Source: an uncultured Nitrososphaerota archaeon
Lineage (GTDB): Archaea; Thermoproteota; Nitrososphaeria; Nitrososphaerales; Nitrosopumilaceae
DNA: 64,000 bases
Direction: 5' to 3'
Assembly: GCA_963701075.1 (NCBI GenBank)
Contig: OY969559.1
Coordinates: 896,001 to 960,000 of the forward strand
Shown one piece after another: positions 1 to 58,668 of this stretch. How positions within the stretch are numbered: the first letter of the stretch is position 1; each line of letters begins with the position of its first letter. A program made the position numbers and the translations under genes. Below the pieces are notes generated by a model. The model saw nothing but the letters and a program-made list of their open reading frames with translations, was not told the origin of the DNA and searched no databases.

Positions 1-338
1 TCCATCATATGATATAGATCCTTCATCATCGGTTCTAGAATTTATTTCAATTAGTGGAGCACCTGCATTAGTACTTGCAGGCTCTTCATTTTTGTTGGCA
101 CGCAGATATGGTTCAATACTTTGCGGTTCTCTTATCATTGCTGGAGGAGTTGTAACATTAATTGGAATGGGCTATGTCAATACCATGATACCTATGATAG
201 ACTCCTGCATATGTGGTTCCACAACTTTCACTTACTCCAATTATATTTATGGGCGTATCAATACCTGTCATGATAACTGGCGGTCTTTTATTTCGCTTGA
301 AGCCTAGACCGAAAAGAGATTACGTTTTTGACGGATAA
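1..338 (+). CDS. Partial (5'-truncated) multi-pass membrane protein with an apparent +1 error at 199-203
   Basis: Open frame from the window start with hydrophobic segments. Removing one A from AG[A]CT (199-203) continues into a further TM helix (..PIIFMGVSIPVMITGGLLFRLKPRPKRDYVFDG*), stop at 336-338. Confidence 0.65.
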
Positions 339-766
339 TCAAATCTCATTGAATTAGAATGTAACTTGAATCCTAATTTTTTGTAAAAAGGAATAAGATC
401 ATCTGTACAATCAAGAATGGTTTTGTAACAACCTTGTTTTTGCGCATATTCCAATAAAGAATGTACTATTTTTTGACCAACCCCTCTTCCTTGGAATTCT
501 TTTGCAACCACGACATCTTCGATGTGACCAACCTTCCCTCCGTTATGGATGAATTTTTGTTCAATTATGATGCTTGCCGCACCTATGATTTTTGAATCCA
601 TTACTGCAACGTATATTGTCTCATTTGGATTTTCAGAAATCTTATCAAATATGGCCTGGGCTTTTCTTGGACTCATATCGCTTGTACTCCTAAGCGAATC
701 AAGCGAATACAGAAATCCATTGAAGAGATCTTTTTTCTGGAGCTTGCGTATCTTAATTTCGGTCAT
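320..766 (-). CDS. GNAT acetyltransferase, glucosamine-6-phosphate N-acetyltransferase (GNA1)-like
   Basis: EQKFIHNGGKVGHIEDVVV..QGRGVG..GCYKTILDC..FYKKLGF is typical of the GNA1 family. Confidence 0.85.
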   Translation of the reverse strand: MTEIKIRKLQKKDLFNGFLYSLDSLRSTSDMSPRKAQAIFDKISENPNETIYVAVMDSKIIGAASIIIEQKFIHNGGKVGHIEDVVVAKEFQGRGVGQKIVHSLLEYAQKQGCYKTILDCTDDLIPFYKKLGFKLHSNSMRFDYPSKT

Positions 767-775
767 GTTTAAGAC

Positions 776-1477
776 TTAGATCTGGCCAAGCCTTTCCAAA
801 TAATGCTGATATGCGCGTCGATAGGAAGCCTTGTCGCCTATGTCGATAAACCCATTCTTAATCGAATATCCGTTTACCCTGTTCTTCTTAGCCAACGCAC
901 TACGAATAACAAGGTCCATCCCATATGGCTTGCCTTCTGGAATTAACTCGAAAATTCCAGGCTCCATGACATAACATCCTATGTTGATATTGCCTTTCAC
1001 CTCGGGCTTTTCTTGCCATGTCTTGACCCTGCTGGTCTTGTCCATTTCTATGAATCCATATGGAATCTTGGTCTTGTATTCGGACAACCCCATAGTCACA
1101 AAGGATTTTTTCTTTTTATGATAATTAATCATATTTTTCAAACTAAATTCAAAAATTGAATCTCCGTATACGCAAACAAAAGTATCATCAATAAATTCTT
1201 GTGCAGTTTTTAATTGTCCTGCTGTTGCCAGAGGTCTATTTGCAACTGCGTACTCTATTTTTACACCAAATCTGCTCCCGTCTTCAAAATAATCTTCTAT
1301 TGTTCTTCTCAAATAACTTACACATAAGACAAATGAATCGACGCCGTTGTTCTTTATCCATTCAATCAAATGCTCTAAGAGTGGTTTGTCTCCAAGTGGA
1401 AGCATAGCTTTTGGCAGAAATGTAGTGTAAGGTTGAAGTCTTGTTCCAAGTCCACCAGCTAAGATTACAGCCTTCAT
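776..1477 (-). CDS. Sugar-phosphate nucleotidyltransferase (NTP_transferase family)
   Basis: N-terminal MKAVILAGGLGTRL..PKAMLP signature, plus GD and DIG motifs. Confidence 0.9.
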   Translation of the reverse strand: MKAVILAGGLGTRLQPYTTFLPKAMLPLGDKPLLEHLIEWIKNNGVDSFVLCVSYLRRTIEDYFEDGSRFGVKIEYAVANRPLATAGQLKTAQEFIDDTFVCVYGDSIFEFSLKNMINYHKKKKSFVTMGLSEYKTKIPYGFIEMDKTSRVKTWQEKPEVKGNINIGCYVMEPGIFELIPEGKPYGMDLVIRSALAKKNRVNGYSIKNGFIDIGDKASYRRAYQHYLERLGQI

Positions 1478-1525
1478 GAGATGTAGTCTAAGAATGTAGT
1501 ATTTATTTTGAAGGATAAAGATATT

Positions 1526-2827
1526 CTACCTAATCTTGACAAGCTTTGTCAAGACATCTTTTGGAGTTTTGCCAAATAGCAAGATCATCGGCTCTTTTCC
1601 AACATCTCCTCTATGATATATGATATCTGGAGGGTTCTTGAGTTTCTCAATTGCGCTCTTTATCCCCCACGATATAGTTTTTCCTTCAGTAACCTTGGTA
1701 TCATGTGATTCCAGAACTCTATCATAATATGCGACGCAAAGTCTCTTTGCAATAGCTTTTTTGATTGTCTTGTTGTCATATTTGATGTTAACAGCAGATC
1801 TTATCGAGGGGAACTTTCTTGTCACCTCTAGGACTGCATTGGCCACATGTTTTGAGCCTCCGTACTTGAGTATACCTGTCACCGTAACAAATTCTCCTGT
1901 TTTGACTATACGTCCTTCAAGTCCTAGTATGTGGAAAATGGATTCTGGACAAGGCTTGGAAAACACAAAATTTGTCTGCACTTCTGGTATGTGACCGTAA
2001 ATTCCTTTGATGTTAACAAATTGATTGATTGCTATGGAAAGATCATCTTCTATTATGTCAGCATTTTTTTGTCTTGCAATAGCTAGGCCTTTTCCAACTC
2101 TTGTCGAATTCTTGATGGATTCAAATGAAATCTTTTGTGCAAGACTTGCAGATTCAGACAAGCCCTTTCCTTTGGCTATATTCACACAAAGTGCGGCAGA
2201 AAATACGCATCCTCCGCCATGACTTTCTCGCTGAAGCCTTTTTTGAGAAAACATGTGAAATTTCTTGTTTTCAAGTAAGAGGTCAGTTACCTTATCGTCT
2301 TGCATATGTCCGCCTTTTATTATGACATTTTTTGCACCCATGGAATTTATCTTATGGGCTACTTTTTTTGCATCACTCCAGGACTTTATTTTCATACCTG
2401 TGATCCTCTCTGCTTCTGGCACATTTGGAGTTATGACATATGAGAGAGGTATGAGCAATTTCTTAAAATCAGAAAAAGCGTTAGCCAGAAGAAGCATCCC
2501 TCCAGTTGTTGATTCAAAAATAGGATCAAGCACGATGGGCATCTTTAGATTTTTCAATTCAGAATGAATTGTTTTTATGGTTTTTTTATCATAGACCATT
2601 CCTATCTTTATTGCATCAATCTTGAAATCTGAAAGAACTGATCTTATCTGACTCTTGATGATTTCAGATGAAGCAGGTTCTGACTTGAAAAACTTTGAAG
2701 AGTTTTGGCTTGTTAATGCAGTAATTACACCGAGTCCGTATGCTCCAAGAGATGTGAATGTCTTTATATCTCCTTGAATGCCTGCGCCAGAAGATGGATC
2801 AGAGCCTGCTATAGACAATACATTCAT
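1526..2827 (-). CDS. thiD: Bifunctional HMP/HMP-P kinase + ThiN-type thiamine-phosphate synthase (ThiDN)
   Basis: IAGSDPSSGAGIQGDIKT, TPNVPEA and HGGGC motifs; C-terminal ThiN domain (IPEVQTN..GGSKHVA..GDVGKEPM). Confidence 0.9.
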   Translation of the reverse strand: MNVLSIAGSDPSSGAGIQGDIKTFTSLGAYGLGVITALTSQNSSKFFKSEPASSEIIKSQIRSVLSDFKIDAIKIGMVYDKKTIKTIHSELKNLKMPIVLDPIFESTTGGMLLLANAFSDFKKLLIPLSYVITPNVPEAERITGMKIKSWSDAKKVAHKINSMGAKNVIIKGGHMQDDKVTDLLLENKKFHMFSQKRLQRESHGGGCVFSAALCVNIAKGKGLSESASLAQKISFESIKNSTRVGKGLAIARQKNADIIEDDLSIAINQFVNIKGIYGHIPEVQTNFVFSKPCPESIFHILGLEGRIVKTGEFVTVTGILKYGGSKHVANAVLEVTRKFPSIRSAVNIKYDNKTIKKAIAKRLCVAYYDRVLESHDTKVTEGKTISWGIKSAIEKLKNPPDIIYHRGDVGKEPMILLFGKTPKDVLTKLVKIR

Positions 2828-2882
2828 GACATTACCATAGGAAACTCACGTTTAAATTCAATCGATTGGTAAAAAAGGTAAA

Positions 2883-4220
2883 TTGGGAACACAAATGAGC
2901 GCGGCCCGTAGGGGCATTGCCACCGAAGAAATGAAAACAGTGGCAAAAGACGAAGATGTAACTCTAGACTGGCTCATTTCAAAAATGGCAACAGGCTCGA
3001 TTATAATTCCACACAACAACGTCAGACCACAAAAGATTCACGTGGTAGGAATTGGCAAGGGAATGAAAACAAAGGTCAACGTCAACATTGGTAATTCTAC
3101 TCTGAATCAGAATCTGGATGAAGAAGTAAAAAAGGCTAAAGTTGCTGTAAAATATCACTCAGACACTATAATGGATCTAAGTGATGGTGGGGATGTAGGT
3201 CTTTTCAGAAGGACTCTGCTTGAGGCAGCTCCTATAACATTTGGTACAGTTCCAGTATACGAGGCTTACAATTATGGTGTTGAAAAACACAAGAATCCAC
3301 TTGATATAACTGAAGACGACTATCTCAATGCATTTGAACGTAACATAAAAGATGGAGTTGATTATACTACAATACATTCTGGTATTACAAAAGATATAGC
3401 AAAAAGAATTTTGGCAGTAAAAAGACACGGCGGAATAGTAAGCAAGGGAGGAACTATCACGGCCGCATGGATGCTAAAGTATGACAAGGAAAATCCATAC
3501 TATGAGCACTTTGATTATCTAATAGAGCTGGCAAGACAATATGATGTTACTTTTAGCTTGGGCGATGCTCTAAGGCCAGGTTCCATACTTGATTCGCATG
3601 ATGAATTGCAGGTTCAGGAGATGATTAACATATCAAGGCTAACAAAAAGAGCTCATGAAAAAGATGTACAGGTGATGGTGGAAGGACCTGGACATGTACC
3701 ACTAAATGAAGTTGCTGCAAATGTTAGACTAGCAAAATCTCTGATTGGCGATGTACCGTATTATGTATTGGGACCGCTTGTAACTGATGTAGCATCAGGC
3801 CATGATCATATTGCCAGTGCAATAGGTGCTGCAATATCTGCAAGTGAAGGGGTAGACTTGCTGTGTTATCTAACTCCGGCAGAACACTTGGCTTTACCAA
3901 ATGCTGACGAAGTAAAGGCAGGGTTGATTGCATATAGAATTGCCGCGCATGCTGCAGACCTTGTCAAATTGCGAGACAAGGCAATCAAGTGGGATATGGA
4001 AATGACAGAGGCAAGACGAACTCTCAACTGGGAAAAACAGATTGCATTATCAATTGATCCTGAAGAGGCAGCACGGATACATGCAAGAACAGGTCAACTC
4101 AAGGGAAATACTGTACCCTGTACAATGTGTGGGGGAGCGTGTGTCTACATAATGCTTCCACAACAGAGATACACCAAATCAGATGAAGTAACAGAAGAAA
4201 AACTACAACAAGTCAGCTAG
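2883..4220 (+). CDS. thiC: Phosphomethylpyrimidine synthase
   Basis: TKVNVNIG, IMDLS, GTVPVY, SLGDALRPG, MVEGPGH and C-terminal CTMCGGAC; TTG start. Confidence 0.97.
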   Translation: MGTQMSAARRGIATEEMKTVAKDEDVTLDWLISKMATGSIIIPHNNVRPQKIHVVGIGKGMKTKVNVNIGNSTLNQNLDEEVKKAKVAVKYHSDTIMDLSDGGDVGLFRRTLLEAAPITFGTVPVYEAYNYGVEKHKNPLDITEDDYLNAFERNIKDGVDYTTIHSGITKDIAKRILAVKRHGGIVSKGGTITAAWMLKYDKENPYYEHFDYLIELARQYDVTFSLGDALRPGSILDSHDELQVQEMINISRLTKRAHEKDVQVMVEGPGHVPLNEVAANVRLAKSLIGDVPYYVLGPLVTDVASGHDHIASAIGAAISASEGVDLLCYLTPAEHLALPNADEVKAGLIAYRIAAHAADLVKLRDKAIKWDMEMTEARRTLNWEKQIALSIDPEEAARIHARTGQLKGNTVPCTMCGGACVYIMLPQQRYTKSDEVTEEKLQQVS

Positions 4221-4608
4221 AACCTTGTCAAGGCTTGGAACTGTTTGATATTGTGTTAATTCTAAAGGACTTATCCATCTGTATTCTTGATTCTCCCAAT
4301 TAAGAGTAATTGTAGGATCTTGTACAGAAAACAAGAAGGGGAAGATCAACCACTCGTGGTTTGCATATTGAGGGGAATCTACACGAATTTGTTGTGCAGA
4401 TTTAAGAAGACTAATGTTATTTTCTGTTATGCCTACTTCCTCCAATATTTCCCTTTTCAGCTCTGTAGATTGGCTCTTCACTGCCTTCTATTATTCCAGA
4501 TACTCCTGCCCAAAGGCCTTTCATTGACTTTACTTTTTCGCTTCGCTTTAAGATGAGATACTTGTCGTTATGAACTAGAAAGGAAGTGACGATTTTTGTG
4601 GATTTCAA
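4203..4608 (-). CDS. NUDIX hydrolase (one extra base at 4458)
   Basis: Two ORF pieces join into G..E..E...RAKREILEEVG (Nudix box) and LNWENQEYRWI when the C at 4458 (next to AGCT) is removed; 405 nt, in frame. Confidence 0.85.
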
Positions 4609-5463
4609 CTATTTTTCAACAGCATTTACCATGGATACTAATTTTTTGTATGCGTCATCCATGTCAACATTCTTTGCAAGTCGCTCTTTTGCACTACTGA
4701 TATACTTGAGAATCTCTTCAGTCCTGTTTTCCTGAATCAAAATAAGCATCCTGCCTATGTCCTTCCAGAACTCTTCAGCATATCTTCTAATTTCTGGATT
4801 TGAGATTATTGTCTCAATGAGTTCTGGAGATTCTGTCATTATTCCAGCAGTTAGAAGCTTTTGTGCCTTGAACGTGGTACCTGCCATCTTTTCAACTAGT
4901 GTAAAGTTCTCCTCCTTTGCAAGTATGTTAGCAAGTGTCAAGTTGACTAAGTGAGTCATACCTAAGATTATTGCAATTTTTTTGTCATGCTCTGTCGCAT
5001 CTATCTGAACAAAATTTGCTTCAGGAAATAATGATTTTGCCACCAAAAGCTCTTTTTTTGCATCACGAATTGGAATGGAGATTATGTTCTGTCCCTTTAG
5101 CTTCTTTGTTCCGGGCCCAAACATGGGATGAATACAAATTGGACTTACCTTATCTGGAATTTTTGATAGTGCAGCTGCAGTTTTTAGCTTGAGTGAAGAA
5201 ACGTCAATAAGGAAAGATTCTCTTTTCATCTCTTTTGCAATCAGTCTTATAGTTTCTGGAGTGCGCTTGACTGGAATGCAAAGAATAACATAATCTGCAG
5301 GTAATATTGCGCCAACAAGGGATTGTGCCTTTGTAACTGCTTTATTTTGGATCTCTTTTTCGGCATCAAAACCAATTACCTCAAAACCCTTCTCAAGAAA
5401 GTACTTTGTGAACCATTTGCCTATTTGTCCTTCTGCACCAATTATGGCTATTTTCTTCTTCAT
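4609..5463 (-). CDS. tyrA: Prephenate dehydrogenase
   Basis: IIGAEGQIG Rossmann motif, DVSSLK, HPMFGP, EHD; lies in the aromatic amino-acid operon. Confidence 0.9.
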   Translation of the reverse strand: MKKKIAIIGAEGQIGKWFTKYFLEKGFEVIGFDAEKEIQNKAVTKAQSLVGAILPADYVILCIPVKRTPETIRLIAKEMKRESFLIDVSSLKLKTAAALSKIPDKVSPICIHPMFGPGTKKLKGQNIISIPIRDAKKELLVAKSLFPEANFVQIDATEHDKKIAIILGMTHLVNLTLANILAKEENFTLVEKMAGTTFKAQKLLTAGIMTESPELIETIISNPEIRRYAEEFWKDIGRMLILIQENRTEEILKYISSAKERLAKNVDMDDAYKKLVSMVNAVEK

Positions 5464-6830
5464 TTTTCTGTCCTCATCACTTCTTCTATTATCTTCATTC
5501 CTTGGTTAAGTGTTTCTTCTGGCTGACAAGCAGATATTCTGACAAATTCTTGGTAATTTCCAAATCCTTCACCAGGTGCTATCGCAACGCCATAATCTAA
5601 AAGCTTGTTTGTAAACTCAACAGAGTCAAAATGTGGCTTTTTCACCTTGGCAAAGAGGTACATTGCGCCATCTGGCTCCACAAACTCAATTTCCATACTC
5701 TTTGCCTTTTTTATCACAGCTTCTAGTCTAGTTTTGATGGTTTTAGTATTATCGGTAGTGTCAGCCTCGAGTGCTTTCATGGCTACATATTGAATTGGTT
5801 CTGATACGTTTGTCATAGCCAACGCCTGTAGCTTTGCCATCTGGTCTATTATCTCAGGACTTGATACGGCATATCCTATTCTAAATCCAGTCATTGCATG
5901 AGATTTGGAGAAAGACTGGGTCACAATTGATTTGCTGTACTTGTAGGAAAGAACACTCTTCCAATTTTTGAATGCATATGAAGAATAAATCTCATCACTT
6001 AACACATAGAGGTTGTTTTTTATTGAAATATTCATTATTTGGTCTAGTAATTTTTCTGATAGTATTTTCCCGGTGGGGTTGTTTGGATAGTTTAGCACTA
6101 TCATCTTTGTATTTTGGTTGATTGCGTTTTCAATCTCTTCTATCTTGGGCTCCCATCTATTTTCTAGGCTTGTGTGAATGGTTCTGACCTTGACCCCTGA
6201 ATTTAGAGCATTGTCTCTGTATGCCGGCCATGCTGGCTCTATTATTATTATCTCGTTTCCAGGATTTAGCAGAGTAGAGATTGCAAGAAAGACTGAAAAT
6301 CTCGCACCAGGTGAGACAAGAATATTTTGTGAATCTGTCTTGATGCCAAATGTCTTGGTAACATAGCTTGCAAGAGCTTCTCGAAACTCCGTCATTCCTT
6401 TTGAATCTCCATACTTTGTGTATCCCTTATCATAGACCTGGGAAAGGGCACTATTGACTATCTTTGGTGGGAAAAAGTCTGGCTCGCCTACCTCCATGTG
6501 AATTATTTTTTTTCCTTGTTTCTCTAGTGTCTTTGCCTTCAAGAATACTGAAAGATGAGTTTGCTTGTTTGTTGATTGTATCTTGACAGATTCATTTAAC
6601 AGAAAATTTAGCATTGTCAAACCCGTTTTCTCATCAAGACCAATCTCTCTACATAATGACTGAACCTTGGTTCGAAGCTGACTTTCTCTTTCTTCATTGG
6701 TTATGCCTAGTCCCAGATTATTCTTGAGGTTGCCAATTTCTTTTGCCGTGTCATTTCTTTCCCTTAATAATTTCAGCATATCAAATGTTATCTTGTCCAT
6801 CTTGTCGCGCAGCTTGTCAATATCTGACAT
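5460..6830 (-). CDS. Chorismate mutase (AroQ-type) fused to a class I/II aminotransferase
   Basis: N-terminal IDKLRDKMDKI..RNDTAKEIGNLK..ERE (CM_2); C-terminal NYPNNPTG, SDEIY and SFSKSHAMTGFRIGY (PLP lysine). Confidence 0.9.
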   Translation of the reverse strand: MSDIDKLRDKMDKITFDMLKLLRERNDTAKEIGNLKNNLGLGITNEERESQLRTKVQSLCREIGLDEKTGLTMLNFLLNESVKIQSTNKQTHLSVFLKAKTLEKQGKKIIHMEVGEPDFFPPKIVNSALSQVYDKGYTKYGDSKGMTEFREALASYVTKTFGIKTDSQNILVSPGARFSVFLAISTLLNPGNEIIIIEPAWPAYRDNALNSGVKVRTIHTSLENRWEPKIEEIENAINQNTKMIVLNYPNNPTGKILSEKLLDQIMNISIKNNLYVLSDEIYSSYAFKNWKSVLSYKYSKSIVTQSFSKSHAMTGFRIGYAVSSPEIIDQMAKLQALAMTNVSEPIQYVAMKALEADTTDNTKTIKTRLEAVIKKAKSMEIEFVEPDGAMYLFAKVKKPHFDSVEFTNKLLDYGVAIAPGEGFGNYQEFVRISACQPEETLNQGMKIIEEVMRTEK

Positions 6831-6833
6831 TTC

Positions 6834-7931
6834 TTATCGAATCACTGGTGAAATGAAGCCTGCTCTTAATGCATGATCAACAAGTATCACTGAGACCAGA
6901 GAATCAACTACAGGCGGCGCTCTTGGGACTACGCATGGGTCATGTCTGCCTTGAACTATTAGAGATACTGACTTTTTTGTCTTGACATCTACGGTATGTT
7001 GCTTTTTTGCAATGGATGATGCAGGCTTGAAAGCAACTCGAAGCACTAACGGCATTCCAGTGGATATTCCTCCTAGTATACCTCCAGCATTATTTGTTCT
7101 AGTTACAATCTTTCCATTCTTTGTTATGAATTCGTCATTGTTCTCAGAACCATGCAGAGTTGAACCGTAAAAACCTGAGCCAAATTCCACTCCCTTGACA
7201 GCAGGAATTGAAAATAACGCCTTGCTAAGATCTGATTCTAGGGAACCAAAGATTGGCTCACCAAGACCTACTGGAAGATTTGTAGTGATAGATTCGATAA
7301 TTCCTCCCACAGAATCCCCACTTCGCTTTGCTGCAAGTATGGCAGCTCGCATCTTTTCTGCTATTTTTGGATCTGGGCATCTTACTTCATTGTTGTAAAT
7401 GAAGTTCTTCATCTTTGGCACAACTTGGTTATTCAGCTTTATCTTGCCTACTTGACAAGTGTAAGAATAAGTGTCGACTCCAATAGTCTGAGAAAGCAAT
7501 TTCTTTGCAATGGCTCCTGCCATTACAAACGTAGCAGTAAGCCTACCAGAAAATCTGCCTCCTCCTCTATAATCATTGAATCCGTTATACTTTATGTATG
7601 CTGGATAGTCAGAATGGCCAGGTCTTGGTCTCAACGTTAAATTTTCATAATCGCGAGAACGTTGGTCTTGATTCCAAATTACCATTGTAATTGGATCTCC
7701 AGTAGTGTATCCACGAAATACACCTGAGAGAATTTCCACCTTATCCTCTTCTTTTCTTTGAGTTGTTATGACTGATTGACCTGGCTTGCGCAAATCAAGC
7801 ATCTTTTGAATGTCCTTTTCCTCAAGTTCCAAACCTGCTGGACAACCATCTACGACAGCTCCTATGCATCTGCCATGACTCTCGCCAAAACTGGTAAAGA
7901 CATAGCGCTGGCCAATCGAACTTGAAGACAT
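6834..7931 (-). CDS. aroC: Chorismate synthase
   Basis: FGESHG, RPGHSD, RGGGRFSGR and GRHDPC motifs; start moved to MSSSSIG at 7931. Confidence 0.97.
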   Translation of the reverse strand: MSSSSIGQRYVFTSFGESHGRCIGAVVDGCPAGLELEEKDIQKMLDLRKPGQSVITTQRKEEDKVEILSGVFRGYTTGDPITMVIWNQDQRSRDYENLTLRPRPGHSDYPAYIKYNGFNDYRGGGRFSGRLTATFVMAGAIAKKLLSQTIGVDTYSYTCQVGKIKLNNQVVPKMKNFIYNNEVRCPDPKIAEKMRAAILAAKRSGDSVGGIIESITTNLPVGLGEPIFGSLESDLSKALFSIPAVKGVEFGSGFYGSTLHGSENNDEFITKNGKIVTRTNNAGGILGGISTGMPLVLRVAFKPASSIAKKQHTVDVKTKKSVSLIVQGRHDPCVVPRAPPVVDSLVSVILVDHALRAGFISPVIR

Positions 7932-8037
7932 GATGAAATTTTCATTTGGATGCTTATAATCCTTATAGGGATCAGTGATTTTCAACAAAATTCTGACCCA
8001 TACAATCAAAAATTAGATAATTGGTTAACATGTTACT

Positions 8038-8826
8038 ATGAAAATACGTAGTGCGCAGGAAAGCGACAAGGATGTCGTCTTGGAATTCTGCAAAGACACA
8101 TTCCAGTGGGGTGACTATATTGCCGATGTCTGGGACAAATGGAAGTCAAAAGGGGGCTTGTATGTATTGGAGGAAAATAATTTAGTTGTTGGCGTATACC
8201 ATGTGGTTTCTTTTAAAAAAGAAGCATGGATTGAGGGAATGAGAGTGCATCCACAATATAGAAAAAAAGGATTTGGTACTGACATGTTAACTCATGCAGA
8301 ATCTGTCATACCAAACAAGGTAATTCGATTGATAATTGAAAGTGAGAATCATCCATCAATAAGACTTGCCGAATCAATGGGATATAACATAGAAGAAAAA
8401 TGGAGACTATATTCAATGGTTCCAGCAAAACAAGAATCAAGTGCAATAATGGCAACACCGTCATTCCAACTAGATGGTATAATTGAATCGTCAACATATG
8501 CCAATTCATGGAAATGGTTGCCACTAGATGCAGAAGAAGTCAAAAATCTCATAGAACAAAATAGAGTCATAATATCTATCAAAGACGGAAAAACACTAGC
8601 TGCCGGAATATGGAATCAGTCAAATGAATTTCCTCATGTATTCCAATTTGTATTTGTAAGCGGAACAAATGAAGGCATGTCAGATATTCTAAAATATGTT
8701 CAGAACAAGGCACACGATCTAAACTCAGAGAGGATCCAAGTCTTTATACAAGAAAAAATTTCGCCGGAGGTAAATTTTTTGGACAAGAGATTGTTATTTT
8801 ATTTAATGAAAAAAGAATTGCATTAG
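8038..8826 (+). CDS. GNAT family N-acetyltransferase
   Basis: WIEGMRVHPQYRKKGFG and N..SIRLAESMGY GNAT motifs. Confidence 0.8.
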   Translation: MKIRSAQESDKDVVLEFCKDTFQWGDYIADVWDKWKSKGGLYVLEENNLVVGVYHVVSFKKEAWIEGMRVHPQYRKKGFGTDMLTHAESVIPNKVIRLIIESENHPSIRLAESMGYNIEEKWRLYSMVPAKQESSAIMATPSFQLDGIIESSTYANSWKWLPLDAEEVKNLIEQNRVIISIKDGKTLAAGIWNQSNEFPHVFQFVFVSGTNEGMSDILKYVQNKAHDLNSERIQVFIQEKISPEVNFLDKRLLFYLMKKELH

Positions 8827-8860
8827 AAAAATCTATAATGCTTGAACCAAAGATAAACTC

Positions 8861-9268
8861 ATGAATTATTGGCTTGTAAAACAAGAACCGACCACGTATA
8901 ATTATGACCTACTGGAAAAAGAAAAAAAGACTGTCTGGGACGGAGTTCACAACAACTTGGCATTAAAGCACATTCGTGCAATGAAAAAAGGAGACAGGGC
9001 ATTTTTTTACCATACGGGAGATGAGAGACAGGCTGTCGGTATACTGGAGATTACAAGTAATCCGTACCCAAATCCAAAAGAAGATGATAAGAGGTTTGTA
9101 GTAATGGACGTAAAACCAGTCTCAAGATTGAAAAGGCCAGTGACTCTTGAAGAGATAAAAAAAGATGTCAAGTTCAAAAACTGGGAATTGATAAGAATCT
9201 CAAGACTATCTGTGATGCCAGTCCCAAAACAACTCTGGGACGAGATTGTGAAAAAGTCAAACAAATGA
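8861..9268 (+). CDS. EVE domain protein
   Basis: MNYWLVKQEP..WDGVHN..MKKGD.AFFYH..RLSVMPV, the classic EVE signature. Confidence 0.92.
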   Translation: MNYWLVKQEPTTYNYDLLEKEKKTVWDGVHNNLALKHIRAMKKGDRAFFYHTGDERQAVGILEITSNPYPNPKEDDKRFVVMDVKPVSRLKRPVTLEEIKKDVKFKNWELIRISRLSVMPVPKQLWDEIVKKSNK

Positions 9269-10532
9269 CTATGTTGAAATCTTGGCCCCTATCTTGTTCA
9301 TTTCCTTGATAAAATCAGGATAGGAGACATCTACGGATTCTGGGTCTGTTACAGTACAGTTACCTACAACCATTCCTGCAATACAAAATGCCATAAACAA
9401 CCTGTGATCGTCTGCAGAGTCAAGCTCAGCACCATTGAGGGACTTTGGTGCCTCTAGAATCAATCCGTCCTCTTTTTCTGTGATGCCAATGCCAATCTTT
9501 GACAGCTCTTTTGCTAAAATGGAAATTCTGTCGGTCTCTTTGAACCTAGCATGCCTTACATTGTAAATCTCAATTGGATTTGACGTTCGAAGTGCCAAGA
9601 TAGCCATTGGCGGAAGCAAGTCTGGAGTATTTGAGAGATCAAACCTTCCTCCTGTAAGCTTGGACGGTGCCTTGACCCTTACTGTATCACCTATGGATAC
9701 ATCAACGCCCATCTTTTTCAGGTGCGATATCATTTCTTTGTCCCCTTGTGGCAAATCTCCAATCGGAGCAGAAACTATCATGTCATCTCCTACTAGTACC
9801 GCAGCAGAAAGAAGAAGTGCCATACTGGAAAAATCCGCAGGTACTGTGAAATCTGTTGGCTTGTAGTCCTGTTTTGGTATGTTGTATTTCTTGTAAGGAG
9901 ATATGGTATTTACGTTGACGCCAAATTTTTGCATGATTGCAATAGTTGCATCAAGATATGGCTTTGAAACCAGATCACCTTCAATTTCTAAGGTAATACC
10001 TTTCTCAGTTTTAGGAGCAGCAATCAAAAGTGCAGAAATAAACTGACTTGAAACAGAGCCAGCTATGGAGGTACTACCACCACGAATCTTTCCCTTTACG
10101 GTAATGGGCGGAGTCCCATTAGTTGATGTACACTTTGCATCAAGTTTCTCAAGAGCGTCAAGAAGCGGTTGCATGGGTCTCTTCCTGAGACTAGCATCTC
10201 CTGTAAGCGTAATCCTGACATCAACAAGAGAAGCTATGGCTGCAGATATCCTAATTGTTGTACCAGAGTTTGATGCATCTATCTCCGATCCTGTCGTGGA
10301 TATGCTACCAGTACTTTCAACGTTGACAGTAGAACCGCTGGTTGATATCTTGGAACCGAAGACCTTGCAGGCATTTATGGTTGCAATGGTATCTCGAGAA
10401 AGCAACACATTTCTAATTGTGCTATTTCCCTTTGCAAGAGATGCCAAAAAGATAGCACGATGTGTATAGACTCTTGTTGGGAGGACATGATATCGTGCCA
10501 GATAATTTTGATTTTTCAACCTTACATTTCAT
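9269..10532 (-). CDS. aroA: EPSP synthase (one extra base at ~10470)
   Basis: NSGTTIR, LRKRPM, SSQFISALL, RFKETDR and DDHR motifs. The true N-terminus MKCKVEKSKLSGTISCPPNKSYTHR is restored by removing one base at AG[A]CT 10468-10472. Confidence 0.93.
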
Positions 10533-11376
10533 GGACTTCAGCCTTTTGGTTGGTGACAGGAGAAACTATTACAGTTCCATCAAGCGAGGAAAATACCTTC
10601 TTTACCAGTAAAATCTTGTCATTTTTTGCAATTGCTGCAATAGAAGGACCATTTCCTGAAACAGATGCCCCCAGTGCACCGCTCTCCATTAACTCTGTCA
10701 AGATCTTCGGGTCAGAACCAAGTATGGTGGAAGTGGCAAGACCATTGAGTGTCATTGCATTCCAGTAATCTGATTTATTTGCCAAATCCCATGCTTGAGA
10801 GAACACATTTTGCAAAATTTTCAATTTTTTTACATTTCCTCTTTTACGAGACTTTGGAATGAATATCACTGCAGATAGATCTTCTGGTGCCTTTTCGGCT
10901 TTTATTATTTTGATGTCTGTGTTGTCAGTTACAACAAATCCTCCGAAGTAACATCCGCACGCATCATCAAATGCCCCTGTAATACTCACTTTTGATTGGA
11001 TTGAAGCTTGTACCCCATCTCTTAAGATTTCTATATCAGTTGCTTTTGGTTTGAAAAGTTTGGCACACGCAAGTGAAATTACAGAAGATATGGCGCTAGA
11101 GCTTTTCAGACCATATCCTGCCGGTATCTCTGTTTTGACAGATATTCTAAGCCTATTTTTTTCCAGTTCAGATTTTGGCACTGATGTTTCCACAACGGCT
11201 CTTATCAGACGTGAGCTAAGGCTTGATTCTCTGTTCTCAAAAATTATTCCCCTTCCCGACTCTGTCACAATTGTAGCTTCAATTCTAAGCGATATGCCAA
11301 GTGTTGCACCCTTGCCAGTTGCAATGGCATTTACTATTGAGACTGCACCGTGCATACTTGCTCTTACTTGGGCCAT
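10522..11376 (-). CDS. aroK: Archaeal shikimate kinase (GHMP family)
   Basis: GAVSIVNAIATGKG, IPAGYGLKSSSA, ITGAFDDA and SGNGPS motifs. Confidence 0.93.
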   Translation of the reverse strand: MAQVRASMHGAVSIVNAIATGKGATLGISLRIEATIVTESGRGIIFENRESSLSSRLIRAVVETSVPKSELEKNRLRISVKTEIPAGYGLKSSSAISSVISLACAKLFKPKATDIEILRDGVQASIQSKVSITGAFDDACGCYFGGFVVTDNTDIKIIKAEKAPEDLSAVIFIPKSRKRGNVKKLKILQNVFSQAWDLANKSDYWNAMTLNGLATSTILGSDPKILTELMESGALGASVSGNGPSIAAIAKNDKILLVKKVFSSLDGTVIVSPVTNQKAEVHEM

Positions 11377-11377
11377 T

Positions 11378-12199
11378 CTAAAATCTCCCAAGCAGTGTCA
11401 ATTTCATTGCTTCGTATGGGGCCGGTTGACCGGTCCAAATCTCAAAAGATTTCATTGCTTGAGCAAGGAGCATTTCCCAACCATATATGATCGTCGCCCT
11501 TTGTTCTTTTGACTGCTGAATTAATGGTGTTTCTACAGGCATGTACACAATATCGTAAACTATGGAATCTTTGGTGATGTTTTTTGTTGATATGGGACAA
11601 CCTACTCCCTTAAGACCGACCGAAGTTGCGTTCACAATAAACCTGAAATTTGCAGCCATCTCTCCGGCTCTTGCCAGATCCACATATTCAGATTCTAAAC
11701 CAAGTTGTTTTGCAAAGTTCACCATTTCTTCTGCCCTTTCCCGTGTCCTGTTTGTAATGGTTATCTTACGAACCTTCTCCTTTGCAAATCCTACAATGAC
11801 GGCCCTAGCAGCTCCACCTGCACCAATTAACAATACATCACAGCCTTTGCAGTCGATCTTCCTTTTTCTTATCGGATCTAGAAAACCATCTACATCCGTA
11901 TTGTATCCCTTTAGGTAACCATTAGTGTTGACTACGGTATTTGTTGCTCCTACCGTCTTGCATTGGTCATCAGCTTCGTCAAGTAATTTCATCATGTCTA
12001 CTTTGTGAGGTATAGTGACGTTGAAACCTGCAATACCTATCTTTTTTAGATCTTTAATGCCATCCTCAAGTTCGCCCTTTGGAATCCTGTATGCTATGTA
12101 AGTACAATCCAACTTTAGAAATGCAAATGCGGGGTTGTGAAGTGCAGGTGATAATGAATGATCAATGGGATCGCCTATGACCGCATAAGTTTTTGTCAT
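11378..12199 (-). CDS. aroE: Shikimate dehydrogenase
   Basis: GDPIDHSLSP, NVTIPHK, NTDVDG, GAGGAARA, DIVY.P.ET motifs. Confidence 0.96.
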   Translation of the reverse strand: MTKTYAVIGDPIDHSLSPALHNPAFAFLKLDCTYIAYRIPKGELEDGIKDLKKIGIAGFNVTIPHKVDMMKLLDEADDQCKTVGATNTVVNTNGYLKGYNTDVDGFLDPIRKRKIDCKGCDVLLIGAGGAARAVIVGFAKEKVRKITITNRTRERAEEMVNFAKQLGLESEYVDLARAGEMAANFRFIVNATSVGLKGVGCPISTKNITKDSIVYDIVYMPVETPLIQQSKEQRATIIYGWEMLLAQAMKSFEIWTGQPAPYEAMKLTLLGRF

Positions 12200-12263
12200 T
12201 GAAAACTAATTTCCTTGCATCATGATTTAAGGTATTAGGAATGGTTCGGCAAACTATTGATAC

Positions 12264-12548
12264 TCAAACGCCATAGCTGTTTGTTCTGGAATAAAACTTC
12301 TTTAATTTGGAGCCGCATTTTGGGCAGCTGTCCTGCTGATGAATTGTGGCACAGTCAAGACATACGAAATTAGCCTCCTTATTTTTTGGTGTCCTGTATT
12401 GGTATATTATGATGTATGCTAGTGCAACTATCCATACAAGTATCAATAATGGAATTAGATGAAAGATTCCAAGAACTGCTGTTACTGCAACAGCTAGTAT
12501 GATGACATTTCTTGGAACATTGTTCAAAAACTGACCCATTTTCTTCAT
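12264..12548 (-). CDS. Small membrane protein with a C-terminal zinc ribbon
   Basis: Two hydrophobic helices followed by CLDC..CPKCG. Confidence 0.7.
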   Translation of the reverse strand: MKKMGQFLNNVPRNVIILAVAVTAVLGIFHLIPLLILVWIVALAYIIIYQYRTPKNKEANFVCLDCATIHQQDSCPKCGSKLKKFYSRTNSYGV

Positions 12549-12650
12549 ATTGTAGTAGTTTATCTTTTATAATAAGGCTGGGTAGAGGGCGGTTTTTCTT
12601 ATGAGACAATAAGAGATTAGTTAATTAATACAAAAGGAACTTTATGATGT

Positions 12651-12875
12651 ATGAAATCCGACGATTTTAGAGACATTGTAGAGGAGTGCGGCAAGATACT
12701 TGACGAGAACGTGAACATACTTTCTGATATGGAGTTTGAAATTGATTCTGAGAAAGAAGACGTTGTAAAACCCATGATGACAAAAAACGAACTTGTTGAT
12801 ATGGCTCACGATGTAGCGGAATCTGTCAGAATAAAAAAAGCCGAGTCTTCGTTTGTTCGAAGACATTTTGACTAG
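12651..12875 (+). CDS. Hypothetical acidic protein
   Basis: 74-aa ORF with an AT-rich promoter-like upstream region; no recognised motif. Confidence 0.55.
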   Translation: MKSDDFRDIVEECGKILDENVNILSDMEFEIDSEKEDVVKPMMTKNELVDMAHDVAESVRIKKAESSFVRRHFD

Positions 12876-12921
12876 TCTTTAGTATCTAGTTAGGCCATGA
12901 GAGGTTTCTCTTGCAACCTGC

Positions 12922-13596
12922 TTACTTTTGCAATCTAAATATTGACGCCATTTCATCAAGACTAAATTGTCCTGGGGCTACTGGTTTTCCAAGGGATACA
13001 TATGTGAATGGACTTCCAAGTCTTGTACATAGAATCCTGGACATTCTGCCATAGTCACCCATTGCAAAAGCGATCAGATTTGATCTACGCGGCATTCCTT
13101 TGTATAAGTTAAGAATCCTGAATGTGTCATTAATCGTTCTTGCTGTAGTTACAACCTTGATATTTTTTGAAAATCTTGACATTTTCTTTACCATTGATCT
13201 TAACAACTTCTCACTTGGAGTTTTTGAGAAATCATGCCATGATGCTAACATGTTTACTCTTGTTCTTTTGAGGTATTGGTATAGGCTTTTGTTTTTTCTC
13301 AATGTGTTGTATTCCACATCAAGAAGATACGGGTTGAATTCTGCAATCAATTTTAGTATGGAAATTCTCTCCGTCTCGGTGCCAGCAAACTTACCGCCTT
13401 CTGATTTAGGTCTAAGAGTACAGATACATCTTCCCAGGTATGGCTTTACTACATTTAGACAATAAGGAATTTGAGTTGGGTTCAAAAAATCCAATCTTAG
13501 TTCAGCATAGTCTGATTTGCTTAGTGACTTCCTCAAGTTGGTTACGAGCTTTGCTACGCTACGCACGCCAATTGATACGCAAGTTTTATTGGCCAT
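12922..13596 (-). CDS. aroD: Type I 3-dehydroquinate dehydratase
   Basis: ELRLD, T.R...EGG, S.HDF..TP, AMG..G..SR and APGQ motifs. Confidence 0.95.
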   Translation of the reverse strand: MANKTCVSIGVRSVAKLVTNLRKSLSKSDYAELRLDFLNPTQIPYCLNVVKPYLGRCICTLRPKSEGGKFAGTETERISILKLIAEFNPYLLDVEYNTLRKNKSLYQYLKRTRVNMLASWHDFSKTPSEKLLRSMVKKMSRFSKNIKVVTTARTINDTFRILNLYKGMPRRSNLIAFAMGDYGRMSRILCTRLGSPFTYVSLGKPVAPGQFSLDEMASIFRLQK

Positions 13597-13620
13597 TATT
13601 AGTCTGATGTTTTACTTGGT

Positions 13621-13923
13621 TTAGCCTGACTTGGTTTGGTTTGCTGGTGTGCATGCTTCCCACTGCTTCAATGAGGAGCATTCGCCTGGATTGCGTTGTG
13701 CATTAGATATTGCTTGGCTCATTGCTGACCATTGGTGTGGTGTGCAGAGCTGATCTCCACATATGTTTTGGCCACCCGTGAATCTGTCAGTCTTATGAGC
13801 ATCTTCTTGGTATGAAAAGTCTCTTGGTGTCAATGCGCTGGCAGATGGTACGACCATTACCCAGATCATCACGGACAACAATGCTACTGCAGCCAGTCCA
13901 AATCGTAGTTTTTGATTTAGCAT
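13621..13923 (-). CDS. Secreted hypothetical protein (4 Cys)
   Basis: Signal peptide ending ASA; ICGDQLC motif. Confidence 0.65.
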   Translation of the reverse strand: MLNQKLRFGLAAVALLSVMIWVMVVPSASALTPRDFSYQEDAHKTDRFTGGQNICGDQLCTPHQWSAMSQAISNAQRNPGECSSLKQWEACTPANQTKSG

Positions 13924-14088
13924 CTAGGATCTTGTATATTCTACTGATATATTTACATTAGCATACAATCATACTTGATTATAATATCAATGTCATTATC
14001 ATTCCGGATCGTTTTTTCTCGACAAATAGGTAGTTCTCGAACAAACATTACAGAAACTTTTATGAAACGACCAAGATATGAAAATCAC

Positions 14089-14385
14089 ATGAGCACAGAG
14101 AATAGATCGGAAGCAAAAGACACAGTCTTCATCGGAAAAAAGCCTTTGATGGCATATGTGACATCGGCGCTCATACAGCTTGCTAACCGCCCAAAAATAT
14201 CGATAAAGGCCAGAGGGCTTAGCATAGGTAGAGCTGTCGACGTGGCACAAATAGTTGCTAGGAGGACAGACGGTTCCGGATACTCTATAGGGGAAATCAA
14301 AATAGGATCTGAACAGCTCGAGTCAAATGACGGAAGGCCAAGAAACGTATCCACTATAGAAATTGAAGTCAAGAAAAATGCATAA
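14089..14385 (+). CDS. albA: Alba DNA/RNA-binding protein
   Basis: VFIGKKPLMAYV..IKARGLSIGRAVDVA..NVSTIEI; start MSTEN at 14089. Confidence 0.93.
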   Translation: MSTENRSEAKDTVFIGKKPLMAYVTSALIQLANRPKISIKARGLSIGRAVDVAQIVARRTDGSGYSIGEIKIGSEQLESNDGRPRNVSTIEIEVKKNA

Positions 14386-14511
14386 GACTGCCTAAAACAT
14401 GTAAATCGTGGAAAACATGTTTTAGCTGATTTTCTTTGATTTCTACTATGTAACTAGTTGATACTCAGATCTTCTTACAAATATTAAATATCAAACTACT
14501 TTAGGAAGGTA

Positions 14512-15378: not shown

Positions 15379-15409
15379 AGGTTATCTATCAAGGATCGTC
15401 AATCATGCC

Positions 15410-15613
15410 ATGGTAACTACAAACAGCAAGTCGTATTTTCGAGAGGTAGAAAAAAGCCATAGAAACTACACTTCTGCACTAAAGAGGGCCGGATCAAGAC
15501 AATCCGTAATGAATCTTTATTGGAAACACAAGCGTCAACATGAGGCCCTCCTGAAAAAACATCTCAGAGAAGAGATGGCTGAAATAGTTCAAATAAAAAA
15601 GAAATTCAAATAA
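15410..15613 (+). CDS. Small basic hypothetical protein
   Basis: 67-aa Lys/Arg/His-rich helical ORF followed by a T-rich terminator-like tract. Confidence 0.6.
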   Translation: MVTTNSKSYFREVEKSHRNYTSALKRAGSRQSVMNLYWKHKRQHEALLKKHLREEMAEIVQIKKKFK

Positions 15614-15646
15614 CTTCTTCTTTTTCTTTAATGATAATTAATTCCC

Positions 15647-18627: not shown

Positions 18628-18647
18628 GTGAGAACTTTTTAAAGATT

Positions 18648-32791: not shown

Positions 32792-32794
32792 GCC

Positions 32795-33633: not shown

Positions 33634-33648
33634 AACTAATCCTTGTAC

Positions 33649-51687: not shown

Positions 51688-52750
51688 CTAGATCTTGCTT
51701 AACGTAATTCTTGTAAAAATTACTAGGGATAAAATGGATGCTGTCAGGGCAAGCAAAGTTGTCGCGCCAAATTCTGGTACAGTACTCTTTGCCATGTTTT
51801 CAGTAGAGTTTGAAATTGAAAATTTTTGTATGCTTGGATGATCATACGACGCATCTGAGACATACACATCTCCAGCAGAATCAACCGCAATACCTGACGG
51901 GGCCCCAAACTGTCCATTGCCTGTACCAAAAGATCCAAATTTTGTAATAAACTGACCAGTACTTGTAAATTTCTCTACCCTGTAGTTTCCAGTATCTGCC
52001 ACATACACATCACCAACCGAATCAACAGCTATGCCCTGGGGTGAATTGAACTGTCCATTGTCTGTACCAGTAGAGCCCCATTTGTCGATAAACTGACCAT
52101 CACTTGTAAATTCCTCAATGCGGTCATTGCTTGTATCTGCCACATACACGTTTCCGGCACTGTCAATTGCTATACCCGTTGGAGAATCAAATTGACCACT
52201 ATCATTTCCAAGTGAGCCCCACTTTGCCATGGCCTGACCGTCATTTGAAAATTTTGCTACCACATTTTTTGTCGGATCAGAAAAATAAATATTGCCAGAA
52301 GGATCTATTGCTATGCGAGCTGGATAATACTGTGTAAGATTAAACTGTTGAATGTAATTGCCAGAGCCGTCAAACTCTTCGATCCTGTTATTTGATTGGT
52401 CTGCCACATACACATTTCCCTGACTGTCAATAGCTATGCTTGTGGGCAAGCTGAACTGACCGCTCCCACTCCCATATGTTCCCCACTTTGCAAGGAATTT
52501 GCCATCATTTGAAAACTTTTCAATTCGATTATTGTTAGTGTCTGTAACATACACATTTCCTGTAGAATCAAGAGTCTATGCTTGCAGGCACGTTTAACAT
52601 GCCATCATAATTTCCAAGCGATCCCCACTCTGTCACAAACGAGTACGTTTCATCTGCAAACGCTAGCGGAAAACTGGCAGAACCTGCATACCATAACACT
52701 ATGGCAAAAATACACGAGAATGTGATTATTGCCACTTTCTTGAACTCCAT
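51688..52750 (-). CDS. Secreted NHL-repeat beta-propeller with a PEFG-CTERM anchor (one extra base at ~52575)
   Basis: Six GQF..P.GIA.DS.GNVYVAD..N.RI repeats and VPEFG+TM. The signal-peptide ORF joins in frame after removing one base at AG[T]CT 52573-52577. Confidence 0.88.
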
Positions 52751-52821
52751 TTTTTCCAAGTTCTGTCTTTTCACTTCCTTATTTAAGATCACCGAGTGAT
52801 CTCAAACATAATTTTGCAGAA

Positions 52822-56416: not shown

Positions 56417-57007
56417 TTATTTTATTCTCTCAAACTCATTCCAAATCGAGTCTATCCTGTCTCTTAGTATCTTGACATCAATTTTTTCCATAAAATCCCT
56501 TTCAACTCTATATCCTATTGCTTCATTTGTACTATAAGATGGGTCTATGAGGCCGCCCTCAACATGTGGTATGGCACCTGATTTCCACTCTCTCATCTCA
56601 AACAACCATACTGGGTCACCCAAATTTGAAAAATCAATATCGTCATGACCTATGAATAACACATGACATTTGGGAAGATTCTCGTATATCTTTTCATAAG
56701 CAATCATTTGTGCCTTTGAGATGACCATTCTATCATCATGAAATATTTTGAGCTCAAAAATCATAAATCCCCCATGATGTTCAATCAACCAATCAACATC
56801 TGTTCCGCCTGATGTTTTCATACGCCTCGATATCAAATTTCCAAGAATTTCTCTTGTTTTTGCAAACAGGAGGGGATTTGCTATCTTGTGCTTTGGTTCA
56901 TCTAGTTCATCCTTGATATAATTTGTCCTCTGAGAGCTCGGTTCACTGGTCGTCTCTTTGGAATTACACATGATATCTGCAAGACCCGATCTGACATCAG
57001 AAACCAT
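56417..57007 (-). CDS. Hypothetical protein with a possible PD-(D/E)xK nuclease motif
   Basis: TDVDWLIE..IFELK..SKAQ pattern. Confidence 0.55.
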   Translation of the reverse strand: MVSDVRSGLADIMCNSKETTSEPSSQRTNYIKDELDEPKHKIANPLLFAKTREILGNLISRRMKTSGGTDVDWLIEHHGGFMIFELKIFHDDRMVISKAQMIAYEKIYENLPKCHVLFIGHDDIDFSNLGDPVWLFEMREWKSGAIPHVEGGLIDPSYSTNEAIGYRVERDFMEKIDVKILRDRIDSIWNEFERIK

Positions 57008-57194
57008 ATTGGAAATTAAATCCGTCTACCTTATAGATCCACGAAATCAATTTTTGGAAACAAACAGCTGGTAATCAGCATACTTGAGAAAATGAAGGCA
57101 TGTGTTTTGCCTTGATCTCTACACATATTCTAAAAATTTAATGTAGTGCAGTGTATACTTACCAAGATTTATGCTAAATTGACCTAGGATACAC

Positions 57195-57653
57195 GTGGTC
57201 GAAATTAAGGTAAGGTTGCAGATTAACACATCACAAGAAAGAGTATGGGGTATAATATCTAACATTGATAACGACTCATATTTTTGGCGAGGAATTACAT
57301 CTGTCAAAAACATCTCCAGAGATGGAAATGTAATCACTCGTGAAATAGTATTGGGCACAACCAACAAATGCATTCAGAAGTTAGTTATTTATCCAAAAGA
57401 AGAAATTAGCATAAGATGGGTTAAAGGAGTAATAACGGGAACAAAAGCAATCCTACTAACTCCAATAGGACACGCAACACTTCTTGAAGTTCAAATGAAT
57501 TATAAATTTTCAGGCGTAGGTAATCTCGCCTCTAAAAGATTAGCAACTCTTTTTCAAAATGAAGCCGAACTTGCAGTTGAACTGATAAAAGAAAAATCAG
57601 AATGGCATGAGCGTCACATTCCTATGAAGACAAAAAAATCCTGGGCGGTGTAA
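57195..57653 (+). CDS. SRPBCC/START-like (polyketide cyclase) protein
   Basis: I.....ERVW.IIS.ID....FW.G..SV pattern and a C-terminal helix. Confidence 0.7.
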   Translation: MVEIKVRLQINTSQERVWGIISNIDNDSYFWRGITSVKNISRDGNVITREIVLGTTNKCIQKLVIYPKEEISIRWVKGVITGTKAILLTPIGHATLLEVQMNYKFSGVGNLASKRLATLFQNEAELAVELIKEKSEWHERHIPMKTKKSWAV

Positions 57654-57655
57654 TT

Positions 57656-58668
57656 ATGGCAAAAACAAACAAAACTAAACAAGTCTTTCTTGATGATTCC
57701 TATCATGAAAATATGTTGTCCGAAAAAATGGATGAAGTTTTAGATGCAACATCGCCAAAATGTCCCATCTCAGGATGTACAGGGGAACCAATAATCACCG
57801 ATACTTCATCTGGGGAGATAATTTGCGGTTCTTGTGGACGTGTTCTTCTTGAAAAATCCATAGATCCAAATCCTGAGCATATCTCTGATGCATCAGAGTT
57901 TGTCTCAAAGACAAGAACTGGACCGGAACAATCGCTTACCATGTATGATATGGGAATGATGACAGTTATTTCCAATAAAGACGCAATGGGTAATTCGTTG
58001 TCTCAGCTATATGAAAAACACTTTTGGCAGATTGAAGATACTTAACAGCAGAAGTAGGACCGCATCATCTAACAGGACATTGAGATCAGACTCTGCTGCT
58101 TCTTTATTCTCTCAAAACAAAATTGGGGCTTCCTGACTCGACAGCTGAGAATGCTGCATATCTTTACCGTAAAGCTATGCAGAAGAGAATTACAGTAGGG
58201 CGTAGTGCAAAAGGTCTAATGTGTGCCTCTCTTTATCTGGCATGTCGACAGACTACAATCCCTCGTTCTCTTTCTGATGTGTCTCACGCCGCAAATGTAA
58301 GCAAGAAGGAGGTCAGTCGGGCTTGTAGAAATCTAATTGAAAATCTTGAAATGTCTTTGGATCCATGTAATGCCTCCGAATTTGTTACCAAAATAGCAAA
58401 TGAGGCAAATATCAGCGAAAAGACACGAAGGGACGCGTTAAGGACTCTTGCACAGTTGGCTCAAAAAGGAACTTCTGCAGGTAAGAATCCAATGGCACTG
58501 GCTGCTGCAACACTTTACTTGGCATGTCTTCTAAACGGAGAGAAAAAAACACAATCTGAGGTAGCAAAAGCTTCGGGTATAACTGCCGTGACTATAAGAA
58601 ACCGATATTCAGCATTAAAAAAAGAGCTTGGACTTGAGACTAATGAAGACCTAGAAAGCCTAAACTAG
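57656..58668 (+). CDS. tfb: Transcription initiation factor IIB paralog (two extra bases, at 58004 and ~58090)
   Basis: Zn ribbon CPISGC..GEIICGSCG, RTGP, cyclin repeats (GRS, PRSL, GKNP, TIRNRY). Removing two bases gives a 336-aa frame. Confidence 0.9.

Follow-up and report, generated by a model that had tools for sequence, protein, structure and literature searches.

A 64,000-nucleotide stretch of the genome of an uncultured Nitrososphaerota archaeon (contig OY969559.1, here G000:C1) contains six genes, aroA and tfb among them, whose reading frames are interrupted by single extra bases at the tetranucleotide AGCT, raising the question of whether these genes are decayed or recoded, or whether the extra bases arose in the making of the assembly. 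The stretch, referred to here as the window, comprises bases 896001-960000 of a 1,915,938-bp single-contig genome with a G+C content of 38.7%. The genome encodes an archaeal AmoA, which identifies the host as an ammonia-oxidising archaeon, and its recovery from a soil-type sample in one 1.9-Mb piece suggests a long-read assembly. Its completeness score is 94.96, compared with 99 in other single-contig genomes of the genus, a shortfall that is probably due to broken marker genes. As described below, the extra bases at four of the seven sites are consensus errors of the assembly, involving neither mutation nor recoding, and the genes that they interrupt are intact; comparison with relatives indicates that the same holds for the remaining three sites and their genes. 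The errors are specific to AGCT across the genome. Their joint best explanation, which we consider likely, is that a long-read-only consensus failed at AGCT sites carrying N4-methylcytosine (m4C), written by a methyltransferase encoded at 14512-15378 of the window.

Extra bases in six genes

Relatives were sought among 30 genomes, including G006, a draft genome of the same genus that is 92-95% identical to the window (92% across the tfb region) and could be aligned to 46,135 of its bases. The unpublished genomes G011 and G012 underlie none of the conclusions. Each of the seven sites is a one-base insertion on the window side of this alignment (Table 1), and tfb, aligned base by base, shows just two one-base gaps inside the gene, at C 58004 and A 58090. 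A preliminary description of the window, made from its letters, had listed seven +1 insertions in six genes with two signatures, [C]AGCT and AG[A/T]CT. The letters and coordinates that it gave are exact, and all seven bases are absent from G006. Its statement that none of them is a homopolymer slip is also correct, none lying within a homopolymer. All seven sites fall on an AGCT-type extra-base pattern, compared with 2.2% of random positions that lie within 2 bases of one, which excludes chance.

At the protein level, stop-free frames of G006 and two further relatives (G013 and G001) were matched to the window. The relatives' intact frames match it as abutting pieces in different frames, with junctions exactly at the seven sites, bearing out the claim that removal of each extra base gives a full in-frame gene. 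The intact frames comprise 148 codons for the membrane-like gene (G006 and G013), 133-136 codons for the NUDIX gene and 431 codons for the EPSP synthase gene (all three relatives), 96 codons for the His-rich gene (G006 only), 370 and 359 codons for the NHL-repeat gene (G006 and G013, respectively), and 351, 339 and 337 codons for TFB in the relatives. The TFB match is split over three frames of the window (57611-58036, 58005-58088 and 58093-58665). Searches of the unaltered pieces against Pfam returned NUDIX, EPSP synthase (profile positions 18-417 only), NHL, the TFIIB zinc ribbon and the TFIIB repeats.

Comparison with read contigs

Independent sequence data were available for the first part of the window. 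DNA runs X1-X4, from one study, contain 95-98% of the sampled words of window positions 1-10000, and X5, from a second study, contains 52% of them. Contigs of X1, X2, X3 and X5 (Logan contigs rather than raw reads) were aligned to positions 1-20000. The libraries look short-read, several contigs having loose ends that we take to be Tn5/Nextera mosaic ends. The sole indels in the contigs over this interval are one letter missing at each of positions 201, 4458, 10470 and 18477. X1-X3 lack the extra base at all four sites (word depth 6-11), X5 lacks it at 4458 and 18477, its only two covered sites of the four, and no alternative contig with the extra base was reported at any covered site. Confirmation of the extra bases by short reads had been named in the preliminary description as the outcome that would contradict it; run with these contigs, the comparison does not confirm them as real and leaves them out at all four positions. 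Consensus errors in otherwise intact genes, as the preliminary description proposed, are thereby shown directly at 201, 4458, 10470 and 18477, and are supported by comparison with relatives at 52575, 58004 and 58090.

The contigs also reveal three substitution-type errors, each restoring an AGCT site (Table 1). All seven discrepancies common to X1-X3 in the 20 kb, comprising four insertions and three substitution events, therefore lie on AGCT, and none of the 61 homopolymers of at least 6 bases in this interval is wrong according to the contigs. With 69 intact AGCT sites in the 20 kb, this corresponds to miscalling of about 9% of true AGCT sites. A difference at 17949, seen in X5 only and located away from AGCT, looks like a strain variant. 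An AG[T]CT at 18752, in a non-coding stretch, differs from G006, and here the reads agree with the window. This AG[T]CT is real sequence and serves as a negative control, demonstrating that AGNCT is not always an error.

Table 1. Extra bases, interrupted genes and other features, in window coordinates unless a genome contig is named
Feature	Position	Strand	Basis or remark
Spurious A inside AGCT (tagActcc)	201	+	Gap in G006; split high-scoring segment pairs (HSPs) with G006 and G013; read contigs X1, X2, X3
Membrane-like gene, 148 codons, broken at 201	start 109 nt upstream of window, end 332		Hydrophobic translation
Spurious C before AGCT (tttCagct on + strand)	4458	-	Gap in G006; split HSPs; X1, X2, X3, X5
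NUDIX gene, broken at 4458	4203-4608	-	Pfam NUDIX
Spurious A inside AGCT (tatagActct)	10470	-	Gap in G006; split HSPs; X1, X2, X3
EPSP synthase gene (aroA), first ~30 codons severed by 10470	9269-10565	-	Pfam EPSP_synthase
Spurious C before AGCT (aatCagct)	18477	-	Gap in G006; split HSPs; X1, X2, X3, X5
Small secreted His-rich gene, broken at 18477	18337-18645	-	
Probably spurious T inside AGCT (aagagTctat)	52575	-	Gap in G006; split HSPs with G006 and G013
NHL-repeat beta-propeller gene, broken at 52575	51688-52801	-	Pfam NHL
Probably spurious C before AGCT (gtctCagcta), first tfb break	58004	+	Gap in G006; split HSPs
Probably spurious A inside AGCT (atcagActct), second tfb break	58090	+	Gap in G006; split HSPs
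tfb gene, broken at 58004 and 58090	57656-58668	+	Pfam TFIIB zinc ribbon and TFIIB repeats
Substitution-type error	4213-4214		Window TC, reads CT, restoring AGCTAGCT
Substitution-type error	7696		Window T, reads G, restoring GAGCTC
Substitution-type error inside methylase gene	15087		Window T, reads C, restoring AAGCTA
Candidate AGCT N4-cytosine DNA methyltransferase gene, 288 aa	14512-15378	+	PF01555; motif IV TSPPY; motif I FTGSG
D12-class (Dam-like) DNA methylase gene	G000:C1 14478-15212	-	Directly beside amoA (15456-16004, -)
Conserved zinc-ribbon gene (CxxC...CxxC), 38 aa	56303-56417	+	Intact in G006, G013 and G001, ending WPES

Genome-wide distribution of the errors

For a count of indels by 4-mer context, a check put forward in the preliminary description, contigs C1-C80 of G006 (81 loci) were aligned to the genome, yielding 92 HSPs (at least 88% identity and at least 400 columns) that span 372,405 genome bases. 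Relative to G006, the genome has 156 insertions and 122 deletions of one base in these segments, of which 114 and 78 were kept (at least 26 of 30 flanking positions matching) and 42 and 44 dropped. After removal of the inserted base, AGCT lies within 4 bases of the junction in 40 of the 114 insertions, compared with 1.83 expected (p=5.2e-42), and no other 4-mer comes near this enrichment except overlapping ones such as GCTA. The 40 insertions consist of 24 of the form T[N]AGCT (21 C, 2 G and 1 A), 15 of the form AG[N]CT (7 T, 6 A, 1 G and 1 C) and 1 other. Insertions before AGCT (class I) are preceded by T in 24 of 24 cases. With a placement tolerance of 2 bases, used because the aligner misplaces some events where G006 has a substitution, 47 of the 114 are AGCT-type, compared with 2.6 expected. 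A GANTC-type motif was considered, the four AG[A/T]CT sites of the window reading GACTC or GAGTC, and was rejected, as in the alignments the extra base is the middle one.

For 41 one-base indels, repair adds 30 codons or more to the open frame across the site, namely 25 AGCT-type insertions, 9 other insertions and 7 deletions; removal of the other 22 of the 47 AGCT-type insertions gains fewer than 30 codons. Four of the seven deletions whose repair restores an open reading frame (ORF) remove or abut a base of AGCT, indicating that errors at AGCT can also take the form of a lost base. These AGCT-linked deletions relative to G006 are located at G000:C1 1162207, 273306, 28739 and 1901166, and their repair gains 85-142 codons. 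GA[A]TC insertions account for 3 of the 9 non-AGCT ORF-restoring insertions (G000:C1 1796180, 1410818 and 1410219, with gains of 284, 86 and 34 codons on removal, respectively). Over all 114 insertions the enrichment of GATC is weak (5 compared with 2.3 expected, p=0.08). The GA[A]TC cases hint at a further, less frequent type of error at GATC, the N6-methyladenine (m6A) motif reported for the clade.

The whole genome was also scanned without a reference for positions at which the loss of one base would join two frames, each 60 codons or longer, into one. This was the case for 72 of 864 T[C]AGCT sites (8.3%) and 128 of 4001 AG[A/T]CT sites (3.2%), compared with 397 of 20000 random positions (2.0%), 1.1-1.8% for the controls T[C]AGCA, T[C]AGTT and T[C]ACCT, and 1.2-2.9% for all other patterns tested. 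A reference-free scan of the window at a lower threshold (30 codons) was discarded, its 47 candidates being mostly noise, with examples such as 13603 and 50637 contradicted by reads or by G006. Per base, TAGCT is 14% rarer in the genome than in G006 and TCAGCT is 18% commoner. Loss of AGCT by substitution relative to G006 amounts to 296 vs 263, with other palindromes ranging from 0.94 to 1.20.

A candidate AGCT methyltransferase

The window encodes a putative N4-cytosine DNA methyltransferase, a candidate for the enzyme acting on AGCT (Table 1). Its match to PF01555 (N6_N4_Mtase, E=1.2e-40) covers profile positions 1-221 of 221, and TSPPY occupies residues 28-32 of the translation. Motif IV of the form SPP[YF] is typical of m4C enzymes, unlike [DN]PP[YF]. 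Matches in the PDB include the cytosine-N4 methyltransferases 8s9m and 8s9n, the best match being 2zie, a putative methylase without assignment. All matches of the protein in NCBIfam are far below the cut-offs and provide no name. It is the genome's only PF01555 DNA methylase, the second PF01555 match being a THUMP/UPF0020 RNA methylase. No PF00145 C5 methylase was found in the genome, which also contains the D12-class gene beside amoA and two N6_Mtase-family genes. Orthologues with at least 79% identity are present in 11 of the 60 other family genomes sampled, in four genera including that of the window, and orthologues with 46-53% identity in about eight more genera. The matches to methylase orthologues in G079, G056 and G087 contain one in-frame stop each (TGA, TGA and TAA, respectively).

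Origin of the errors

Published work gives the two premises of a methylation footprint, both of which had been invoked in the preliminary description and are found in the sources cited here. The first premise is that AGCT m4C methylation occurs in Thaumarchaeota, at 82-96% of sites in published bins and metagenome-assembled genomes (MAGs). Passages of PMC6329791 report it at 96.0% of sites in a Nitrosoarchaeum bin, together with an orphan methylase that shares 45.9% identity with M.Mma5219II, and passages of 10.1101/2021.05.08.442635 report it at 82-91% of sites in two marine Thaumarchaeota MAGs. A review table gives M.Nca01I, M.NspBD3I and M.TarMY3I as AGCT m4C enzymes (PMC11033074), and the same three sources describe, in the passages concerned, AGCT m4C together with GATC m6A in Thaumarchaeota. 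The second premise is that modified bases cause systematic nanopore errors, as described in PMC10687267, PMC11610603 and PMC6591954.

The errors in this genome follow the complete palindromic 4-mer and differ in kind, an indication that their source lies at the site itself. Most likely, the orphan SPPY-type methyltransferase encoded at 14512-15378 writes N4-methylcytosine at AGCT. The modified base would distort the long-read signal, most plausibly that of a nanopore, and the basecaller or polisher would then emit an extra base at a few percent of sites, turning TAGCT into T[C]AGCT and AGCT into AG[A/T]CT; the same distorted sites may alternatively yield a wrong or missing base. Methylation as the cause, its m4C type, the 14512-15378 enzyme as the writer and a nanopore platform are each what we infer from these lines of evidence. 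The assembly would accordingly carry a footprint of AGCT methylation, a proposal with good circumstantial support. The phenomenon is an artefact of a known kind, and methylation of its motif has been described before in the clade.

Several observations weigh against this explanation. Some concern the pattern of the errors: about 4-9% of AGCT sites are affected, so context beyond the motif matters, among the 41 events whose repair restores an ORF, 9 insertions and 3 deletions lie away from AGCT, and neither break of the zinc-ribbon gene (see below) is an AGCT insertion. The excess of AGCT substitutions relative to G006 is small, and the asymmetry test is too noisy to be useful. Others concern the enzyme, a candidate with a predicted AGCT specificity, which has no NCBIfam hit above cut-off and close orthologues in only some genera of the family. 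The nanopore modification errors described in passages of PMC10687267 are mainly mismatches, not insertions. The contigs have a depth of 6-11, those of X1-X3 share one study and X1 is possibly the source sample, and the sites 52575, 58004 and 58090 lie outside the stretch compared with contigs, their reading as errors being supported by comparison with relatives.

A k-mer weakness in basecalling or polishing at (T)AGCT, unrelated to base modification, would be the most serious alternative, and an unlikely one. It is favoured by the 5' T required in 24 of 24 class I errors, which is a strong k-mer dependence, and by the limited share of AGCT sites affected, methylation being supported here indirectly, by the methylase gene and the literature on the clade. 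Against this stands the convergence of three error types (insertion ahead of the motif, insertion at its middle, and replacement or loss of one of its bases) on one palindromic 4-mer, with near-cognate 6-mers one base off (T[C]AGCA and T[C]AGTT) at background. The motif is moreover the one reported to be methylated in the clade, and a matching SPPY methylase is present. The GA[A]TC insertions, three of them with ORF gains, occur at the clade's other motif, and a D12-class methylase is present as well.

If modification is the cause, it is conceivable, though doubtful and somewhat less probable than a k-mer weakness, that this soil ammonia oxidiser marks AGCT with something other than plain m4C (a bulkier or different modification), or that error footprints may be usable as a methylome readout that needs no reference and is taken straight from unpolished public assemblies. 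The former idea arises because the signature consists of insertions rather than the usual mismatches.

That the extra bases are real, as pseudogenising mutations or as a strain variant dominant in the long-read sample, is highly improbable. Logan contigs drop rare variants, and one run at most may derive from the source sample, which leaves some room for such a variant; yet four runs from two studies lack the extra base at every covered site, and the essential genes aroA and tfb (the latter twice) would be inactivated. Some 240 insertions (a scaled figure) all at one 4-mer would, moreover, match no mutational pattern that we know of. Programmed +1 recoding by the ribosome or RNA polymerase, to which the recurrence of the signatures across unrelated genes might point, is scarcely credible, since the extra base is absent from short-read-type contigs (four sites) and from relatives, and the signatures also occur where removal restores no ORF (22 of 47 gain fewer than 30 codons).

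Frame breaks and differences away from AGCT

The broader claim of the preliminary description, that every clear frameshift in the window sits on AGCT, stands for the seven sites and is slightly too strong in view of the conserved zinc-ribbon gene, neither of whose breaks is an AGCT insertion. A possible eighth case had been placed in this gene, at AAAGCTT around 56338, where the alignment with G006 contains no indel. The gene is broken at 56351, by a 5-base loss (one copy of a TACAC repeat), and at 56405, by a 1-base loss. A tandem duplication of TACTT relative to G006 (42514-42518) was considered as a frame break and rejected, as it is intergenic, lying in a 49-base spacer between two minus-strand ORFs.

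A segment of about 10.7 kb (~24716-35443) has no syntenic counterpart in G006, contig C212 of which joins both flanks, and is probably a variable or mobile island. It contains an IS4/5-family two-ORF transposase (DUF4096, 25816-26193, and DDE, 25358-25819), split away from AGCT, as well as an AAA_15/AAA_21 ATPase (26190-27569) and a 701-aa TPR protein (29775-31880).

Consequences for the use of this genome

These findings are of practical more than of biological value, chiefly as a caution to users of this genome. Scaling from 47 per 372 kb gives approximately 240 AGCT-linked false insertions genome-wide, and the excess of ORF-rejoining sites in the reference-free scan (~55 and 49) suggests false splits in about 100 genes, as exemplified by aroA and tfb. 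Before a pseudogene, gene loss, recoding or a split gene is claimed here, the locus should be inspected for T[C]AGCT or AG[N]CT. No raw data are needed for a further use of the footprint, which predicts AGCT methylation in a soil member of the family, as in its marine and freshwater relatives, and points to a candidate for the responsible gene in the window (14512-15378).

Relation to known systems

The interrupted genes resemble frameshifted pseudogenes and genes with programmed frameshifts, such as the IS5-family transposase at 25358-26193, in consisting of adjacent ORFs in different frames. They differ in that the extra base at the seven sites is absent from relatives, and from the read contigs where these cover it, and the split of the IS5-type transposase, unlike the seven sites, lies away from AGCT.

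Another likeness is to modification-mediated nanopore errors, which similarly recur at one short motif and are absent from short-read data, persist whatever the read depth, and occur in organisms with a matching methyltransferase. In PMC10687267, in the passages concerned, these are mainly mismatches, whereas here they are mostly one-base insertions (T[C]AGCT and AG[W]CT) that break reading frames.

With regard to the modification itself, the comparison is with the orphan AGCT m4C methylation of Thaumarchaeota (M.Nca01I, M.NspBD3I and M.TarMY3I). There, methylation is reported, whereas here it is predicted from gene content and error pattern. The two share the same 4-mer and an AmoA-encoding host, and the Thaumarchaeota pairing of AGCT with GATC has its parallel in the one PF01555 SPPY methylase and one D12-class methylase of this genome.

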